A stretch of 64,000 nucleotides of DNA, taken from NCBI RefSeq assembly GCF_003018255.1, contig NZ_CP027440.1; one strand, 5' to 3'. Each line of letters starts with the position of its first letter. Within the stretch, counting starts at the first letter, position 1. The DNA is from Escherichia coli (GTDB lineage Bacteria; Pseudomonadota; Gammaproteobacteria; Enterobacterales; Enterobacteriaceae). Positions 4,316 to 47,078 of this stretch are shown here, one piece after another. The notes below the pieces were generated by a model. It was not told where the DNA came from, ran no database searches, and saw nothing but the letters and a program-made list of their open reading frames with translations. The position numbers and the translations under genes were made by a program.

Positions 4316-4885
4316 ATGAAACTCGTGCACATGGCCAGTGGTTTAGCGGTTGCGATTGCGTTGGCGGCTTGCGCAGATAAAAGCGCGGATATTCAGACGC
4401 CAGCACCGGCTGCAAATACGTCTATTTCAGCAACACAACCTGCTATCCAGCAACCGAATGTCTCCGGTACCGTCTGGATCCGTCAGAAAGTCGCACTGCC
4501 GCCTGATGCTGTGCTGACCGTGACACTTTCTGACGCGTCGTTAGCCGATGCGCCGTCAAAAGTGCTGGCGCAGAAAGCGGTGCGTACCGAAGGTAAACAG
4601 TCACCATTCAGCTTTGTTCTGCCATTTAACCCGGCAGATGTTCAGCCGAACGCGCGTATTCTATTGAGTGCGGCGATTACCGTGAATGACAAACTGGTAT
4701 TTATTACCGATACCGTTCAGCCGGTGATCAATCAGGGCGGAACTAAAGCCGACCTGACATTGGTGCCGGTGCAGCAAACCGCCGTGCCGGTTCAGGCCAG
4801 CGGTGGCGCAACGGCTACCGTACCTTCGACTTCACCAACTCAGGTGAATCCGTCTTCGGCAGTTCCAGCTCCTACGCAATATTAA
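4316..4885 (+). CDS. ybaY: Lipoprotein YbaY
   Basis: Signal peptide with lipobox LAAC, 189 aa, Pro/Thr-rich C-terminus. Confidence 0.85.
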   Translation: MKLVHMASGLAVAIALAACADKSADIQTPAPAANTSISATQPAIQQPNVSGTVWIRQKVALPPDAVLTVTLSDASLADAPSKVLAQKAVRTEGKQSPFSFVLPFNPADVQPNARILLSAAITVNDKLVFITDTVQPVINQGGTKADLTLVPVQQTAVPVQASGGATATVPSTSPTQVNPSSAVPAPTQY

Positions 4886-4915
4886 GCGCAGTTAACCCTC
4901 TCCGCCCGGAGAGGG

Positions 4916-5305
4916 TTAGTAGTTCCAGCGATAACGCTGCAAGTCGATTTGCCCGCTTCCCGATACCATCACACCTTCTGCCAGTAATGCCTGTCGTTGA
5001 CGCTGTAAATCCGGTCCGGTTAGCGAAATTGTGCCGTGGCGATTAACCACCCGGTGCCAGGGCAAGGTGCTGCCTTCGGGGAGACGCTTTAACACACCGC
5101 CTACCTGGCGCGCGGCGCGCGGCGATCCCGCCAGTTTCGCCACATCACCGTAAGTGGTGACATAGCCTTCGGGAATAGCGGCGACGATTTGCCAGACGCG
5201 TTGGGGAAATGAATCTTCTTTTTCCATCTTTTCTTCCTGAGGTAATTTTTCAGCATAATCTGGAAAAACGCCCGAGTGAAGCCGCATTGCGCAAGAAACC
5301 AGCAT
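4916..5305 (-). CDS. ybaZ: Alkyltransferase-like protein (Ogt-family DNA-binding domain, no catalytic Cys)
   Basis: Product ...YGDVAKLAGSPRAARQVGGVL...LPWHRVVN; start placed at internal Met (ORF 4916..5326). Confidence 0.8.
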   Translation of the reverse strand: MLVSCAMRLHSGVFPDYAEKLPQEEKMEKEDSFPQRVWQIVAAIPEGYVTTYGDVAKLAGSPRAARQVGGVLKRLPEGSTLPWHRVVNRHGTISLTGPDLQRQRQALLAEGVMVSGSGQIDLQRYRWNY

Positions 5306-5381
5306 CTGGCACGCAATGGGTTGCAATTAGCCGGGGCAGCAGTGATAATGCGCCTGCGCGTTGGTTCTCAACGCTCTCAAT

Positions 5382-5495
5382 GGGGGCTCTGTTGGTTCTC
5401 CCGCAACGCTACTCTGTTTACCAGGTCAGGTCCGGAAGGAAGCAGCCAAGGCAGATGACGCGTGTGCCGGGATGTAGCTGGCAGGGCCCCCACCC
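5382..5495 (+). ncRNA. ffs: 4.5S RNA (signal recognition particle RNA)
   Basis: 114-nt sequence gggggctctgttggttctcccgcaacgc...ggcagggcccccaccc matches the 4.5S RNA sequence recalled from memory; located between ybaZ and ybaA as in K-12. Confidence 0.95.
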
Positions 5496-5605
5496 ATTTC
5501 TGCCTCCCCCCGTTTCGTCAAAAAATCCCAACATGGCTAAACTTTAACCACAACTGACGTCGCAAGAATTGTCTGGCTGCGCAGTACGCTTCGGAGGTAT
5601 GTCTG

Positions 5606-5959
5606 ATGAAGTATGTTGATGGTTTTGTTGTTGCCGTTCCTGCCGATAAAAAGGATGCCTATCGGGAAATGGCCGCTAAGGCCGCGCCATTATTTAAAGA
5701 GTTCGGTGCGCTTCGTATTGTCGAATGCTGGGCCAGCGATGTACCGGATGGTAAAGTGACCGATTTTCGTATGGCGGTGAAAGCGGAAGAGAATGAAGAG
5801 GTTGTCTTTAGCTGGATTGAATACCCTTCAAAAGAGGTCCGCGACGCTGCTAATCAAAAGATGATGTCGGACCCACGGATGAAAGAGTTCGGCGAGTCCA
5901 TGCCGTTTGACGGCAAGCGAATGATCTATGGTGGATTCGAATCAATCATCGACGAGTAG
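5606..5959 (+). CDS. ybaA: DUF1428 family protein YbaA
   Basis: 117-aa ORF at the conserved position downstream of ffs. Confidence 0.8.
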   Translation: MKYVDGFVVAVPADKKDAYREMAAKAAPLFKEFGALRIVECWASDVPDGKVTDFRMAVKAEENEEVVFSWIEYPSKEVRDAANQKMMSDPRMKEFGESMPFDGKRMIYGGFESIIDE

Positions 5960-6000
5960 GTAGCGTGACGGGCTGTGCGGCGTGCCGTCAGCCCTAAAAT

Positions 6001-7557
6001 TCACAAATGTTGCTCGGCCCAGCGTAAGAAATCCTCTTTCGGTAATGCCTTGCTGTAGAGCCAGCCCTGACCGTAGTGCACGCCATGCTGGCGTAACCAC
6101 TCTTCTTGTTTACTGGTTTCGATTCCCTCCGCTACCATTTTCAGTTTCAGTGTTTTTGCCATTTCGATGATATGCGGCGTGACATTTTTATATTCCAGCG
6201 CATCAACGAAAGATTTATCGATCTTCAGAATGTCGACATCCAGATCCTGTAAATAACTTAAACTTGAATACCCCGTACCAAAATCATCGAGATAAATTTC
6301 ATGGCCCGCCTCCCGGTAGCGAGAAATTATCGGGGCGCTGGTTTTCGGATCGGCAAACTCGCGTTCAGTGAGTTCAAGCGCGATCTGTCTGGGATTAACC
6401 TGATAGTGATTGATCATTTCACGCAGCAATTGCGGGATTTTTTCCGAGGTGAGCACGGTGGATTCAAGATTGATCGAAATATGCTGCTGCGGATGCTGAC
6501 GCAGCCAGTCGCCCATATCTTCGAAGACGCTTCTTATGATCAGTAGCGTCAACGGCTCAGAAAGGCCCGTTTGCTGTGCCAGCGGAATAAAACTATCTGG
6601 TGACAACCAACTACCGTCTGTCTGCGGCCAGCGCGCCAGTGCCTCAGCACCGACAATTTTGCCATTGGCTAAGGAGACAATCGGCTGATAGTGCACGCAA
6701 ATATCACGATTTTCGATAGCATCCTGCAGCCGATGATGCGGTGACTGGATACGGCGCAAAATACGCAGCACAAACATCGCTGCCAGCAGGCCAATCACCA
6801 ACCCGAGCGGTAACCAAATAAAGACTTGCCGATGCCAGCCTTTCTGCAACATTTTCGTTGAAGACCAGGTGATGATCGAAATATTCATTTCCGGGAAGGG
6901 CAGGATATCGTAAATGATTCCATTATTTTCGATATGCTCACCGGGTGTTTTTTGTAGTCTGGTAATAATTCCCTGAGCAATTTCATCGCTGCTGGTTATC
7001 ACAACGTTATGGGCATTGCCAATAATGGCGGCATCAATTTGCCATGAGCTATAGGGAATGACATCAATAAAGGAAGCGGGGTCGATCATGACGACATAAT
7101 GTGCCGTTCCCATGGCAACCATGTAACGGATAATGCCTAAATCGTTATGCGATGTTAACCAGACACGATAACCATCTTTCGAAATTTTACCTGGCTCGGG
7201 GAAGGTATCGGGCGGGCTTTCATGCTCCAGAGACGAACACTGGGGAACGTTGTTATCGATATAAACCACTTCCTGAATATAGCGATAACTGTAAGATACC
7301 CGACGCATTTCCATGAGATGGGCTTCGCTACAGGCAGCGCCTTGCCATCTTTCCAGCTCTTGCAGCGCATCTTTCCCTTGTGTCGCCACCTTATTGGCCC
7401 GAATAGCGACGCGGGAGGAATACGTATTCAGCTCTTCAATAAATGATGTTTCTACCTGCTGATGGGCCAGCCAGATGCTTAAGCCGACAGGCAGCAATAC
7501 TGAAAGAATCAGTACTCCCGAAATAAGGCCGACCAGATGTCGTGTTCTCACCAGCAT
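6001..7557 (-). CDS. pdeB: c-di-GMP phosphodiesterase (CSS + EAL domains)
   Basis: 518-aa ORF with N-terminal TM/periplasmic region and C-terminal EAL motifs (EALARW, DDFGTGYSSL). Confidence 0.9.
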   Translation of the reverse strand: MLVRTRHLVGLISGVLILSVLLPVGLSIWLAHQQVETSFIEELNTYSSRVAIRANKVATQGKDALQELERWQGAACSEAHLMEMRRVSYSYRYIQEVVYIDNNVPQCSSLEHESPPDTFPEPGKISKDGYRVWLTSHNDLGIIRYMVAMGTAHYVVMIDPASFIDVIPYSSWQIDAAIIGNAHNVVITSSDEIAQGIITRLQKTPGEHIENNGIIYDILPFPEMNISIITWSSTKMLQKGWHRQVFIWLPLGLVIGLLAAMFVLRILRRIQSPHHRLQDAIENRDICVHYQPIVSLANGKIVGAEALARWPQTDGSWLSPDSFIPLAQQTGLSEPLTLLIIRSVFEDMGDWLRQHPQQHISINLESTVLTSEKIPQLLREMINHYQVNPRQIALELTEREFADPKTSAPIISRYREAGHEIYLDDFGTGYSSLSYLQDLDVDILKIDKSFVDALEYKNVTPHIIEMAKTLKLKMVAEGIETSKQEEWLRQHGVHYGQGWLYSKALPKEDFLRWAEQHL

Positions 7558-43258: not shown

Positions 43259-43989
43259 TTAAGGCTTGCGAAAATAGTCGTCCATTATTTTCGTCAGCTC
43301 CGGACGTTCCCCGTCATCATTGATGGCAAAATCCAGAAAAAAAGCATCTGCTTGCGGCGTTCGGTTTTGCGCCATCAACCGGAAGGTGAGGGGGCCTGAC
43401 CAGGTTTCGGATGGGCTGATGTGCTTATCAGGGCCGAAACTCTCCCATGCGTTGGGCGGTAATGTTTTGCACGCGGTGAGTTTTGGTATGTGGTATTGCA
43501 GCTCTGTTTTGTGCAGACATTCCCCGCCAGGAAATACCAGGGTTTGTTGCTCATCATTAAAATGGGTTGCCGTGCTGAGCACCAGTGTTTTGAGCGGTCG
43601 CCCTTCCAGCGCGGCGGCAGTAGCCTTATGGTGTCCGTCGAGCAGAACGCAGAGATAGGAATCAGGGAGATACCAGGCCAGAGCGCGGGCGATTCCAGTT
43701 TTCGAGAGCAGACAAAAACCGGGCGGCTCCCTGTTCACCCTCCGCAAAACCGCTGTAGACAAATTCCGCACAGGTAGGGCAACCAGCCTCGGACCAGAAA
43801 CGTATTAACGGGACATCCTTGCCAGCAGAGCGAATGGATAAGACCGTGCGAGTGCGGATCGTAAATCACACATTGACGCAGAAATCCTTTCCCGGACTTC
43901 ACCGAAAAAATGACGCCCGCAGCGGTATTTTTCAGCAGACGTACTTCAGGTTTTCGAAAGGGGAAAAAGCATGGCCACTCCTTAGCCAA
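43259..43989 (-). pseudogene. Hypothetical gene split into two overlapping reading frames (43735..43989 then 43259..43804); apparent frameshift
   Basis: Two minus-strand ORFs in different frames overlap at 43738-43804; the downstream frame is open upstream of its first start codon; no recognisable family. Confidence 0.4.
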
Positions 43990-44060: not shown

Positions 44061-44267
44061 TTACCCATTAATCCCCGTTTGTACCGAAAGAATATGTTGC
44101 AAACTTTCTACCATAATGCGCCCCGACTGAAATAAGCCTTCCTGGATTTCATTGTTAACATTCACAGCGTGAACCAGGGAGGCTAATAACACCACTTGCA
44201 AGAAGGCAAAAATAAACGCACCGATAATCATAATATGCGTCAGGGGGATTTTCCTTTGCTCCTTCAT
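44061..44267 (-). CDS. Small single-pass membrane protein (68 aa), hypothetical
   Basis: Start overlaps the upstream lipoprotein stop (ATGA); one hydrophobic helix IMIIGAFIFAFLQVVLLASLV. Confidence 0.5.
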   Translation of the reverse strand: MKEQRKIPLTHIMIIGAFIFAFLQVVLLASLVHAVNVNNEIQEGLFQSGRIMVESLQHILSVQTGING

Positions 44268-44686
44268 TTTAAATAACCCACAAACTGGCCTTCTTTCATT
44301 AAGGCGACTTTTCCTGTGTGATGATAAACAATGACATTATACAGACCCGACTGATAAACCGTGGCATCGGCATTATCTTCATCTATGGCACATAATGAAT
44401 CATTGAGATAAGCAAAATTCTTACTACTCATTCTAAAGGTCATGCCAAATCCTTTATAAATGGCTTTTTTTGCCGCCTGGGCATGTTGTGCGGCTTCTGC
44501 ATTTTTAAATGCCTGCGCTTCAGAAGCACTTAAAATAGCCGTCTGGCGCTGCTGTTCTGCGAGATAACAGGTGTCATGGCTGACGCCCTGCGCCTGACAA
44601 TCTGCGATGCGGGAAGCGGGTGAGCTACAGCCAGCCAGTAATATAACCGCCAGCAGGGAAAAGGATTTAATGGAGCTATTCATCAT
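44264..44686 (-). CDS. Putative lipoprotein (140 aa), hypothetical
   Basis: Signal peptide with lipobox LLAGC; 4 Cys; downstream of the autotransporter gene on the same strand. Confidence 0.6.
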   Translation of the reverse strand: MMNSSIKSFSLLAVILLAGCSSPASRIADCQAQGVSHDTCYLAEQQRQTAILSASEAQAFKNAEAAQHAQAAKKAIYKGFGMTFRMSSKNFAYLNDSLCAIDEDNADATVYQSGLYNVIVYHHTGKVALMKEGQFVGYLK

Positions 44687-44771
44687 TGTTAACCTTAAAT
44701 AATGTGCGAATTAATGAAGAGGTGAAACCCGGCAAGCTTCCTTGCTCTTATTTATATTGAGGATTGAAATA

Positions 44772-45788
44772 TTAGAACGAATATCCTACGCCGACACCTG
44801 CGCCGAAATCAGATTGCGTATCCGCAGAAATACCGGCTTTAAGTACCGTATGCGTTCCGGCATTAAAAGATGTTCCGACAGACACCGCAGATTCACCGTT
44901 GAAGGTTCCCGCTCCCGCTGACACCATCATCACGTCACCGGTTTTAACCTGTGGTTGTGAGGCGATAGCGATGGCAGATGCAGTTCCCGCATTGGCTTCT
45001 TTACGGTTGTCCTCAACTTCGTTTTTCAGCGAACTGTAATGGTTATTGAGCGTGTTAATTTGTTGGCTGTTATCTGCGACCCGTTTTTGCGTGTTGCTTA
45101 ACTGTTGCTGCGTTTGTGCGGAATCTTGTCTCAGACTTTCAATTTGCTCATGTGCCTGGACAGACTTCTGCGCCAGACTTTGCATTTGTTTATCGTATTG
45201 AGCCCTTTCTTTTTGCTGTTGTGCTGCCACATCGGTTGTCAGTGCATTCATTTTCTGCCCTTGTTCCGTGGTAGTGCGCTGATTAGCCTCATTTTGAGCC
45301 GCCAGTCTGGCATTAATCATCTCCTGATAATGCGCAGTATTTTGCGTATCTCCAGTCGCGGCGAGCGTTTTTTGTGTGGCTACGATCTGCGCCTGTTGCT
45401 CTGTAATTTGCGTTTGCTGGGCATCAGTTACCGCAGACTGTCGGGCGTTGATCATGCTCTGATAACGGGCAGGTGTCTGTGTATCACCTGTAGCGGCAAC
45501 GGTTTTTTGTCCTGCGTCAGGATCTGTCTGGACAGTGGGAGTCTGAGTGGTATCAGGTGTTTCAGAAGGGATGTAGTGATGTTCAGTCAAATAGGTATAC
45601 GCAGCGGGGCTGTTGTCTGTGCGTTCTAAAAAGCGGGTAATCTTCTGCTCAATCTCCGATTGCGACATGCCAGAGTTAATGGCTGAAAGCTCTGTTGCCG
45701 CCGCTTCAATGGTATCACCAGCTAAAACAACAGGGCTGGATGTTGCTGAAATTATGAGTGCCAGTAAAGCTACGTTTACAGTTTTCAT
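44772..45788 (-). CDS. Trimeric autotransporter adhesin-like protein (type Vc, YadA-like C-terminal anchor), 338 aa
   Basis: Signal peptide MKTVNVALLALIISATSSPVVLA; Gln-rich coiled-coil stalk with a tandem repeat (ATGDTQ..YQ.MINAR); C-terminal anchor ...AGTASAIAIASQPQ...GAGVGVGYSF ending in aromatic residue. Confidence 0.75.
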   Translation of the reverse strand: MKTVNVALLALIISATSSPVVLAGDTIEAAATELSAINSGMSQSEIEQKITRFLERTDNSPAAYTYLTEHHYIPSETPDTTQTPTVQTDPDAGQKTVAATGDTQTPARYQSMINARQSAVTDAQQTQITEQQAQIVATQKTLAATGDTQNTAHYQEMINARLAAQNEANQRTTTEQGQKMNALTTDVAAQQQKERAQYDKQMQSLAQKSVQAHEQIESLRQDSAQTQQQLSNTQKRVADNSQQINTLNNHYSSLKNEVEDNRKEANAGTASAIAIASQPQVKTGDVMMVSAGAGTFNGESAVSVGTSFNAGTHTVLKAGISADTQSDFGAGVGVGYSF

Positions 45789-46154
45789 TCATTTTCTCTT
45801 GTTCAAAATAAGTCGCATTAATGTTTCTATAAGAAACAAATAATATTATTTTAAGAAATAAACTGCGTTGCAATTTAATCGAAATCTACGCCGCCATTTG
45901 TGTGATGTAAAGCGCATTTTTGTCTGGTGTAAGCGTAAACACCACCAATAAGAAACAAAAAATGTTTCTTATATAAATAAAATCGAAAATCATTTTGTGC
46001 TCTTTCAATGTAAAAAAGAGTAAAGACTTGTTTTGATAAGCGAAATAAATTCTGTTTCTGGACTAAACGTGAAGCGGTTCCTGATGTGTGCTAAAATGCG
46101 TTTCTTTGATAAATCTCAATTTTTAAGAGGTTTACGCCAGGCAGGAAAATTTAA

Positions 46155-46517
46155 ATGAATGAATTTGAGAAGATTTTTAATGAAATGAATCTGGACCGGG
46201 CATTGTTACCGATCCTTTTTCGTTCGAACCGGTCGACAGTGTGGAAGTATTTAAGCGGCGATAGTACGGCTCCTGCCTCTGCCATGTCGCTGATCATGCT
46301 GTTGCAGTTGATCCAGAAACGAAACCCCGATCTGTTAGCCGAATGGTTAACGCTTTCTGATTTCACCATTCCGCCAGAAGTTTACCTGGACCAACCTGAT
46401 TACTGGAAAGGGTGGGTGTATACCCAACACAAGGTCAATAAAAACGTCCTGGAATATCTAAAAAAACACTATCCGGATGAAGACCAAAAAAGTATGGGTA
46501 AAGGCCGGGAAGAGTAA
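46155..46517 (+). CDS. Hypothetical protein (120 aa), divergent from the autotransporter operon
   Basis: ORF with ATG start after an AT-rich 365-bp intergenic region; no family recognised. Confidence 0.4.
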   Translation: MNEFEKIFNEMNLDRALLPILFRSNRSTVWKYLSGDSTAPASAMSLIMLLQLIQKRNPDLLAEWLTLSDFTIPPEVYLDQPDYWKGWVYTQHKVNKNVLEYLKKHYPDEDQKSMGKGREE

Positions 46518-46519
46518 TT

Positions 46520-46620
46520 TTGCCTCTACTCGGCTATATGCCGGATGCGGCGCAAGCGCCTTATCTGGCCTACGATTCGGGCATATTTTGTAGGCATGAT
46601 AAGACGCGCCAGCGTCGCAT
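46520..46620. repeat. REP/BIME elements (two inverted REP units) at the island/ybbJ junction
   Basis: gccggatgcggcgcaagcgccttatctggcctac ... gtaggcatgataagacgcgccagcgtcgcatcaggc. Confidence 0.75.
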
Positions 46621-47078
46621 CAGGCGATGACCGCACGGATAATCAGCGTTATCCCTTCTATCGCAATCACCTCAACATGCGTACCTGCACTGAGATCCTC
46701 GCTGGCGCTGACAGGCCATGAACTGTCACCGACGCGCATATGACCACGCCCGTTGACCAGCGGAGATTCCAGAACAAAACGTCGGCCAATCAACTGCTGC
46801 CCGCGCTGGTTTAAATGACTGTCGCTGTGCTTTTGTTCGCGCACCCGCCGCGACAACCATTTCCACCACAGCCAGGCGGCGAGCAGCGTCAGGACGGCAA
46901 ACATTACCCCTTGCCACTCCCAACCCAGCGGCAGCAACCAGACCACCAGACCGGTAATCACCGCTGCCACGCCGCTCCACAACAGATAACCATTGCCGCC
47001 CAACATCTCGGCTGCCAGCAGCAAACCGCCGAGACTTAGCCAGAAAATATGTGGATGAACGACCATTAACTCCATCAT
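46620..47078 (-). CDS. ybbJ: NfeD-family inner membrane protein
   Basis: 152-aa product overlapping qmcA by 4 nt. Confidence 0.85.

Follow-up and report, generated by a model that had tools for sequence, protein, structure and literature searches.

C proteins, Aca proteins, HigA2 of Vibrio cholerae and MqsA of Escherichia coli all show negative autoregulation, and the latter two repress themselves by binding to palindromes within their promoters. MrpJ/PapX-type regulators are small helix-turn-helix (HTH) proteins that are genetically linked to adhesin loci. A 2026 survey of the gene neighbourhoods of trimeric autotransporters recorded no regulator specifically adjacent to them; for badA, the trimeric autotransporter gene of Bartonella henselae, control by the XRE-type Trp proteins has been reported (PMC5387305). 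Here, we analyse z0640, a 120-amino-acid open reading frame (ORF) in a 64,000-nt stretch of E. coli DNA (assembly GCF_003018255.1, contig NZ_CP027440.1; hereafter the window), which diverges from an operon headed by z0639, a gene with a YadA membrane anchor. The z0640 protein is predicted to carry an XRE-type HTH and is most likely the dedicated regulator of a four-gene cassette comprising the regulator, the divergent adhesin, a lipoprotein and a small membrane protein. We put the probability that it is a local regulator acting through the 366-bp spacer at roughly 55%, and hold the sign of that regulation with less confidence.

The gene and the parts of its product are located as follows.
46155–46517, plus strand: z0640 ORF, 120 amino acids, ATG start, stop codon included; RefSeq WP_001001644.1, ‘hypothetical protein’
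46143–46146, plus strand: AGGA Shine–Dalgarno sequence of z0640, 8 nt upstream of the ATG, as read from the sequence
46155–46343, plus strand: residues 1–63, predicted five-helix XRE/lambda-repressor-like HTH; helix 2 is residues 15–22 and the predicted recognition helix residues 26–34 (RSTVWKYLS)
46344–46499, plus strand: residues 64–115, family-specific helical C-terminal domain with conserved W64, SDF68–70, PP73–74, Y77, Y83 and G86

When published primers were mapped onto the window, the z0640 knock-out arm (PMC5826968) matched 46117–46154 with 0 mismatches and ended directly before the ATG at 46155; the ORF is therefore z0640 of O-island 29 of enterohaemorrhagic E. coli (EHEC), which in EDL933 comprises z0638, z0639 and z0640 (Yang et al. 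2018, PMC5826968). RefSeq annotates it as a coding sequence, and all 12 of the records listed carry the label ‘hypothetical protein’. It occurs in 1,415 of 5,426 complete E. coli genomes (26%; 1,413 at at least 80% coverage), always as a single chromosomal copy; its two matches in a plasmid collection are 4.9-Mb records, and 50,697 phage records hold no match. Carriers of the cassette include O157:H7, O55:H7, O145:H28 and the ST95 chicken isolate ST95-32. The gene is transcribed, with 43.5 reads per kilobase per million (RPKM) in Dulbecco’s modified Eagle’s medium (PMC5826968, Table S3). Over the 104 codons compared, the proportions of synonymous (pS) and non-synonymous (pN) differences are 0.075 and 0 between the window and O157:H7, and 0.17 and 0 between two Pseudocitrobacter copies, and dN/dS is about 0.08 between the window and Pseudocitrobacter, which shows strong purifying selection. 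The terminator-like site at 46333–46352, within the ORF, is no more than chance would give. We conclude that z0640 is a real, conserved and expressed gene rather than a chance reading frame.

The protein belongs to a small family. Exhaustive searching of 1.84 billion representatives with HMMER yielded 19 matches, seven of them at E ≤ 1e-10, and a word-indexed search of 5.8 billion proteins gave 21; the named sources are Escherichia, Pseudocitrobacter and Symbiopectobacterium, and 100,044 species representatives contain four loci. No Pfam or NCBIfam model reached its threshold, and NCBIfam produced no match whatever. The top Pfam match was MqsA_antitoxin (13.5 bits against a cut-off of 30), and the sub-threshold matches were of XRE-type HTH, led by MqsA_antitoxin (5 of 18 members) and Xre-like-HTH (3 of 18), then HTH_19 and HTH_3. 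A profile search against the PDB matched the HTH of HigA2 weakly (E 0.17). A confident AlphaFold2 model built from an 18-sequence alignment has nine helices, a mean predicted local distance difference test score (pLDDT) of 89.4 and a predicted template-modelling score (pTM) of 0.77. Foldseek ranked the HigA2 HTH domain first for this model, including HigA2 in complex with its operator; the match spans residues 1 to about 63, with the HTH beginning at residue 3. The predicted fold is that of the XRE/Cro-C1 class, a compact five-helix bundle in which helices 2 and 3 make up the HTH, and Arg26, the first residue of the predicted recognition helix, is nearly invariant across the family. HigA2 and MqsA have the same five-helix HTH as the model and share with z0640 the pattern that follows the recognition helix (...G.. 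P...A..L..LL...P.LL.E). For the C-terminal domain, structure comparison found nothing matching at low root-mean-square deviation (rmsd); at a guess, it might serve in dimerisation or signal sensing. On the strength of the model, z0640 appears to define a new sequence family within the well-known XRE-fold superfamily.

The sequence-only reading had the coordinates, strand, length and peptide (RSNRSTVWKYLSGDSTAPASAMSLIMLLQLIQKR) of the ORF right, as its translation confirms. It had also noted a ‘helix-turn-helix-like feel’ and suggested looking for a DNA-binding fold, and AlphaFold2 and Foldseek together predict just such a fold, an XRE-type HTH. That it could not name a family agrees with the uniformly sub-threshold Pfam scores and the empty NCBIfam search.

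To place the regulator in its genomic context, we compared the surroundings of eight further family members; L018 and L020 are contigs too short for their neighbourhood to be judged. The loci are arranged as follows.
Window and O157:H7, between cueR and ybbJ: YadA_anchor gene, lipoprotein gene and mini-membrane-protein gene facing the regulator
L004–L006 (Pseudocitrobacter), between qmcA and fetA: YadA_anchor gene, lipoprotein gene and mini-membrane-protein gene facing the regulator
L009, between a chemoreceptor gene and a RES–Xre toxin pair: YadA_anchor gene and a homologue of the 68-amino-acid membrane protein facing the regulator
L010: two tandem YadA_anchor genes facing the regulator
L011, between a riboflavin-synthase-like gene (Lum_binding) and a major facilitator superfamily (MFS) sugar transporter gene: YadA_anchor gene and lipoprotein gene facing the regulator
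L012 and L013, near a sucrose-type phosphotransferase system (PTS) locus: YadA_anchor gene facing the regulator
L007 (Symbiopectobacterium), beside nrdAB: decayed, with a truncated adhesin and a split lipoprotein gene; regulator intact
L019, between rluE and icd: no adhesin neighbour, the sole clear exception to the synteny

In six lineages, at different chromosomal sites, the YadA_anchor gene opposite the regulator’s homologue is thus intact (E. coli, Pseudocitrobacter, L009, L010, L011 and L012/13), and wherever the flank is long enough, L019 excepted, the link to the YadA anchor is kept. Of the seven lineages in which the regulator has an adhesin neighbour, five have a spacer of 359–379 bp between the two genes; that of L011 is shorter (about 230 bp) and that of L012 longer (408 bp). 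Downstream of the regulator, the neighbours vary by lineage: REP elements and ybbJ, fetA, a ferredoxin gene, the RES/Xre pair or a transporter gene. The sequence-only reading had held that lack of conservation of the ORF in related islands would count against it; both the ORF and the divergent arrangement are kept in other genera and at other chromosomal sites. The passengers of the adhesins vary widely across loci. At L004 and L006 (4209–6336), the regulators are protein-identical despite 17% synonymous differences, and the adhesins beside them (363 versus 473 amino acids) differ in the passenger region. By these comparisons, the adhesin is under much looser constraint than the regulator, and the persisting mobile unit is the four-gene cassette, pairing a constrained regulator with a variable adhesin. 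Two loci show variants of the unit. In L010 (842–4641), the cassette is expanded, with the tandem YadA_anchor genes, a small ORF with a weak ParE_like match and then the lipoprotein and mini-membrane-protein genes. In L007/L016 (Candidatus Symbiopectobacterium; 4520–6330), the adhesin is reduced to 174 amino acids without an anchor, yet the regulator and the GTTTCT sites described below are intact.

The spacer between z0639 and z0640 carries the following features.
45789–46154: divergent control region, 366 bp, 30.6% GC, between z0639 and z0640
45822–45838: palindrome TGTTTCTATAAGAAACA, formed by GTTTCT copies 1 and 2 and located where the 5′ leader of the adhesin mRNA is predicted
45883–45911, minus strand: predicted σ70 adhesin promoter, TTTACA-17-TAGATT, inside the best-conserved block of the spacer; transcription start predicted near 45876
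45951–45969: palindrome AGAAACAAAAAATGTTTCT, GTTTCT copies 3 and 4, roughly 40–58 bp upstream of the predicted adhesin −35 element
46054–46059, plus strand: GTTTCT copy 5, at −101 from the z0640 ATG (−101/−103 across lineages), kept in three of five close lineages
46089–46097, plus strand: predicted extended −10 element of z0640, TGcTAAAAT, in invariant alignment columns
46100–46105, plus strand: GTTTCT copy 6, 2 nt after the −10 element and covering the expected z0640 transcription start (near 46104); proposed autoregulatory operator

The hexamer GTTTCT (or its reverse complement AGAAAC) occurs six times in the 366-bp spacer, where 0.28 copies are expected, and none of 2,000 dinucleotide-preserving shuffles reached six. 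The whole 64-kb window holds 30 copies, with no second cluster. Over ten spacers, no other hexamer comes near GTTTCT in enrichment (36 observed against 2.35 expected), and nine of the ten contain it; alignment of the 36 copies gives a consensus of approximately tGTTTCTnnTGG. Its placement relative to the regulator’s promoter recurs. In seven of the nine spacers holding the motif, a copy follows a −10-like hexamer before the regulator by 2–3 nt (in the window, TGcTAAAAT-gc-GTTTCT at 46089–46105). E. coli, Pseudocitrobacter, Symbiopectobacterium and L009 share the location of copy 6, −55 to −58 relative to the ATG. An alignment of six spacers from four lineages shows no variation in TG-n-TAnnAT or in GTTTCTT; the promoter scanner missed this extended −10 element because a good −35 element is absent. 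On the adhesin side, L009 and L007 have the same predicted promoter at the corresponding position, and the AGAAAC half of TGTTTCTATAAGAAACA, which lies about 35 nt ahead of the adhesin ATG, shows no change across seven lineages although the surrounding sequence has diverged. Divergent regulators are paired with altered repeats, four copies of CAGAAA[CG] in L011 and TTTGTTTT-type repeats in L018; such co-variation is as expected for a cognate pair of protein and site, in a sample too small for proof.

Other readings of the spacer fared poorly. Dam-dependent phase variation was rejected, as the spacer contains no GATC. TGTGATGTAAAGCGCA (45901–45916), in the most conserved spacer block, resembles a pair of CRP half-sites (TGTGA-N6-nCnCA) but coincides with the predicted adhesin −35 element and promoter spacer. 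An RNA hairpin in the adhesin leader was rejected in favour of a DNA site: its folding is no better than that of shuffled sequences (z = −1.19), and the pairing partner is not conserved across lineages. A search of 45600–46700 against Rfam found nothing in the spacer, only sub-threshold naRNA4 (REP) matches downstream of z0640.

In the mechanism that we propose, z0640 would encode a small cytoplasmic DNA-binding protein of the XRE (Cro/C1) HTH class that recognises GTTTCT-containing sites (approximately tGTTTCTnnTGG) across the control region. Bound at copy 6, over its own start point, the protein would regulate itself negatively, as the position of that copy implies; the copies upstream of the adhesin promoter and in the leader imply that it would also control the z0639–z0638–orf68 operon, most likely by repression or fine-tuning. 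By analogy, z0640 may thus work like a small XRE-type autoregulator. Repression or fine-tuning is probably to be favoured over activation, because the published genetics argue against an obligate activator. The sequence-only reading had proposed a local regulator from the position of the ORF beside a 365-bp AT-rich divergent region and had suggested searching that region for operator-like inverted repeats. The region is AT-rich and divergent, it is 366 bp long (the stated length is off by one), and two palindromes built from GTTTCT/AGAAAC lie within it. The joint expression of z0638, z0639 and z0640 (PMC5826968, Table S3) and the Bartonella precedent also count in favour of a dedicated regulator. 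The proposal is therefore supported in part, by the predicted HTH fold, the conserved divergence and the operator-like repeats; DNA binding, the regulation itself and its sign we infer.

Several observations weigh against a local regulator acting through these sites. z0640 scores below the gathering threshold of every curated HTH model (HTH_3, HTH_19, HTH_31, MqsA_antitoxin and Xre-like-HTH). Both promoters, that of z0640 and that of the adhesin, are predictions, and the former has no good −35 element. The layout of the half-sites is irregular, with one head-to-head pair, one tail-to-tail pair with another spacing and single copies, which is unusual for a simple dimeric HTH protein. The L018 spacer lacks GTTTCT altogether, and the member at L019 (3200–4007; 48% identical) stands alone behind an 835-bp non-coding stretch with one copy of the motif. 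All hosts of the family are Enterobacterales, so that a shared host factor might bind GTTTCT. Finally, a z0640 deletion leaves motility, fliC and motA unaffected (PMC5826968).

It is possible, if rather unlikely, that the z0640 protein works in the opposite direction, as an anti-silencer or activator of the adhesin operon. The 30.6% GC content of the spacer is typical of H-NS-silenced DNA, and TTGATAAATCT (46106–46116) resembles the high-affinity motif of H-NS. The upstream palindrome, roughly 40–58 bp from the adhesin −35 element, occupies a position often used by activators. The transcripts of regulator and operon also rise and fall together: z0638, z0639 and z0640 are co-expressed, and all drop to zero on attachment to HeLa cells (PMC5826968, Table S3). 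Set against this, GTTTCT over the regulator’s start point and in the adhesin leader takes positions typical of repression, and deletion of z0640 fails to reproduce the phenotype of a z0639 deletion (PMC5826968). Adding z0640 back to an island deletion left motility, fliC and motA, the only phenotypes scored for the z0640 deletion, unchanged, whereas a p15A clone carrying z0639 and the spacer (44771–46107) without z0640 complemented the whole-island deletion (PMC5826968). Complementation without z0640 argues against an obligate activator under those conditions; as the plasmid is multicopy and the phenotype narrow, this evidence is not decisive. Later reviews of EHEC regulation hold nothing further on z0640.

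We consider it quite unlikely that a host factor rather than the z0640 protein binds GTTTCT. The restriction of the family to Enterobacterales and the irregular arrangement of the sites would suit such a factor, and TGTTTC resembles the reverse complement of the ompC C1 half-site of OmpR. Expression of z0639 responds to osmolarity and pH (PMC5826968), which points the same way. A host factor would, however, have to account for a motif that moves with the cassette to at least five chromosomal sites and that directly follows the regulator’s own −10 element in seven of the nine spacers holding it, and, in the small sample available, for the shifted repeats beside the divergent regulators of L011 and L018.

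That z0640 is an orphan antitoxin or a phage remnant seems highly improbable. Its best sequence and fold matches are indeed antitoxins (HigA2 and MqsA) and anti-CRISPR-associated HTH domains, and the L019 copy has no adhesin. MqsA and HigA2, however, have adjacent, co-transcribed toxins (MqsR and HigB2), whereas z0640 has no conserved small ORF or toxin-like partner downstream, where the neighbours differ in every lineage, and no match in PADLOC. Antitoxins of this kind place a toxin-neutralising N-terminal module before the HTH, in contrast to z0640, in which the HTH begins at residue 3; the protein lacks cysteine and therefore has no Zn-ribbon. The missing toxin, the different domain order and the sub-threshold scores led us to reject membership of the MqsA/HigA2 group. 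Phage genomes contain no match, and PHROGs returned only matches at E > 0.02, to families of unknown function. The regulator is also intact, is under purifying selection and keeps its link to the YadA anchor everywhere with enough flank except L019, and its published deletion is viable. We give very little credence to z0640 as an Aca2-like dual binder of DNA and RNA: at an rmsd to Aca2 of 7.6 Å, good superposition is confined to the HTH, the leader folds no better than shuffled sequences, as given above, and conservation in other lineages covers the AGAAAC half without its pairing partner. Nor does z0640 appear to belong to the Aca2 group, which is encoded with acr genes on phages or mobile elements: it has neither a phage nor an acr setting, and good superposition is limited to the HTH. 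Compared with Aca2 and the controller (C) proteins, the target of z0640 would be the divergently transcribed adhesin operon.

A local regulator of the adhesin cassette would have parallels among regulators of adhesins. The Bartonella Trp proteins resemble z0640 in size (108–152 amino acids), in layout, with an HTH in the N-terminal half, and in type of target; unlike z0640, they are not encoded beside badA, are paired with Brt RNAs and belong to Alphaproteobacteria. z0640 is like MrpJ and PapX in being a small HTH protein linked to an adhesin locus. The MrpJ/PapX kind represses flagellar genes and motility; for z0640, neither its deletion nor its return to the island deletion had any effect on motility (PMC5826968).

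The remaining genes and repeats of the island, which extends from 43259 to about 46540 in the gene order ybaT, cueR, island, ybbJ, qmcA, fetAB, are as follows.
44772–45788, minus strand: z0639, published as ‘GmrA’, 338 amino acids; Sec signal peptide, coiled-coil stalk and YadA membrane anchor
44264–44686, minus strand: z0638, 140-amino-acid lipoprotein with lipobox LLAGC, a long helix and an eight-stranded β domain; travels with the adhesin gene
44061–44267, minus strand: orf68, 68-amino-acid single-pass membrane protein, encoded last in the cassette, with a 4-nt overlap between its start and the stop of z0638
43259–43771, minus strand: 170-amino-acid ORF beside cueR, a frameshifted pseudogene according to RefSeq
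46503–46662, both strands: REP/BIME-type repeats with sub-threshold naRNA4 matches, directly 3′ of the z0640 stop, forming the right edge of the island

z0639 has been published as the transcription activator GmrA (PMC5826968), an assignment that reviews of EHEC regulation repeat. The published gene maps exactly onto 44772–45788: the knock-out arms lie at 44734–44771 and 45789–45827 and the expression-clone primer ATGAAAACTGTAAACGTAGCTTTA at 45765–45788, and GmrA is therefore the 338-amino-acid YadA-anchor protein. Its score against Pfam YadA_anchor is 45 bits (cut-off 22.7), a Sec-type signal peptide, MKTVNVALLALIISATSSPVVLA, can be read from the sequence, and its PDB matches are the membrane anchors of AtaA and Hia. 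Among 120 relatives listed, all that are named are called adhesin, YadA-like or YadA-family, and ECs0548, the orthologue in Sakai, appears in a list of adhesion genes under the name ‘Saa-like protein’ (PMC2323221). The sole match with a DNA-binding name, TMF_DNA_bd (E 0.17), is a sub-threshold match to the coiled coil. Judged by its sequence, the published activator is thus a trimeric autotransporter adhesin.

At the edges of the island, the 170-amino-acid ORF is also found in strains without the adhesin cassette (L003), and O157:H7 has the cassette without this ORF. The two thus occur separately, and the gap between cueR and ybbJ has therefore been remodelled more than once. The REP/BIME stretch (46503–46662) matches thousands of places in E. 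coli genomes.

As a system, the locus is of an ordinary type, a local HTH regulator; the novelty lies in the family, in the motif and in the disagreement with what has been published on GmrA, where a secreted trimeric autotransporter, by sequence, is described as a transcription factor and the gene with the predicted DNA-binding fold was passed over as a hypothetical protein. The cassette is present in about a quarter of complete E. coli genomes, and its HTH protein would offer a directly testable model of adhesin timing in which the protein, the 6-bp core of the motif and two predicted promoters are all specified.
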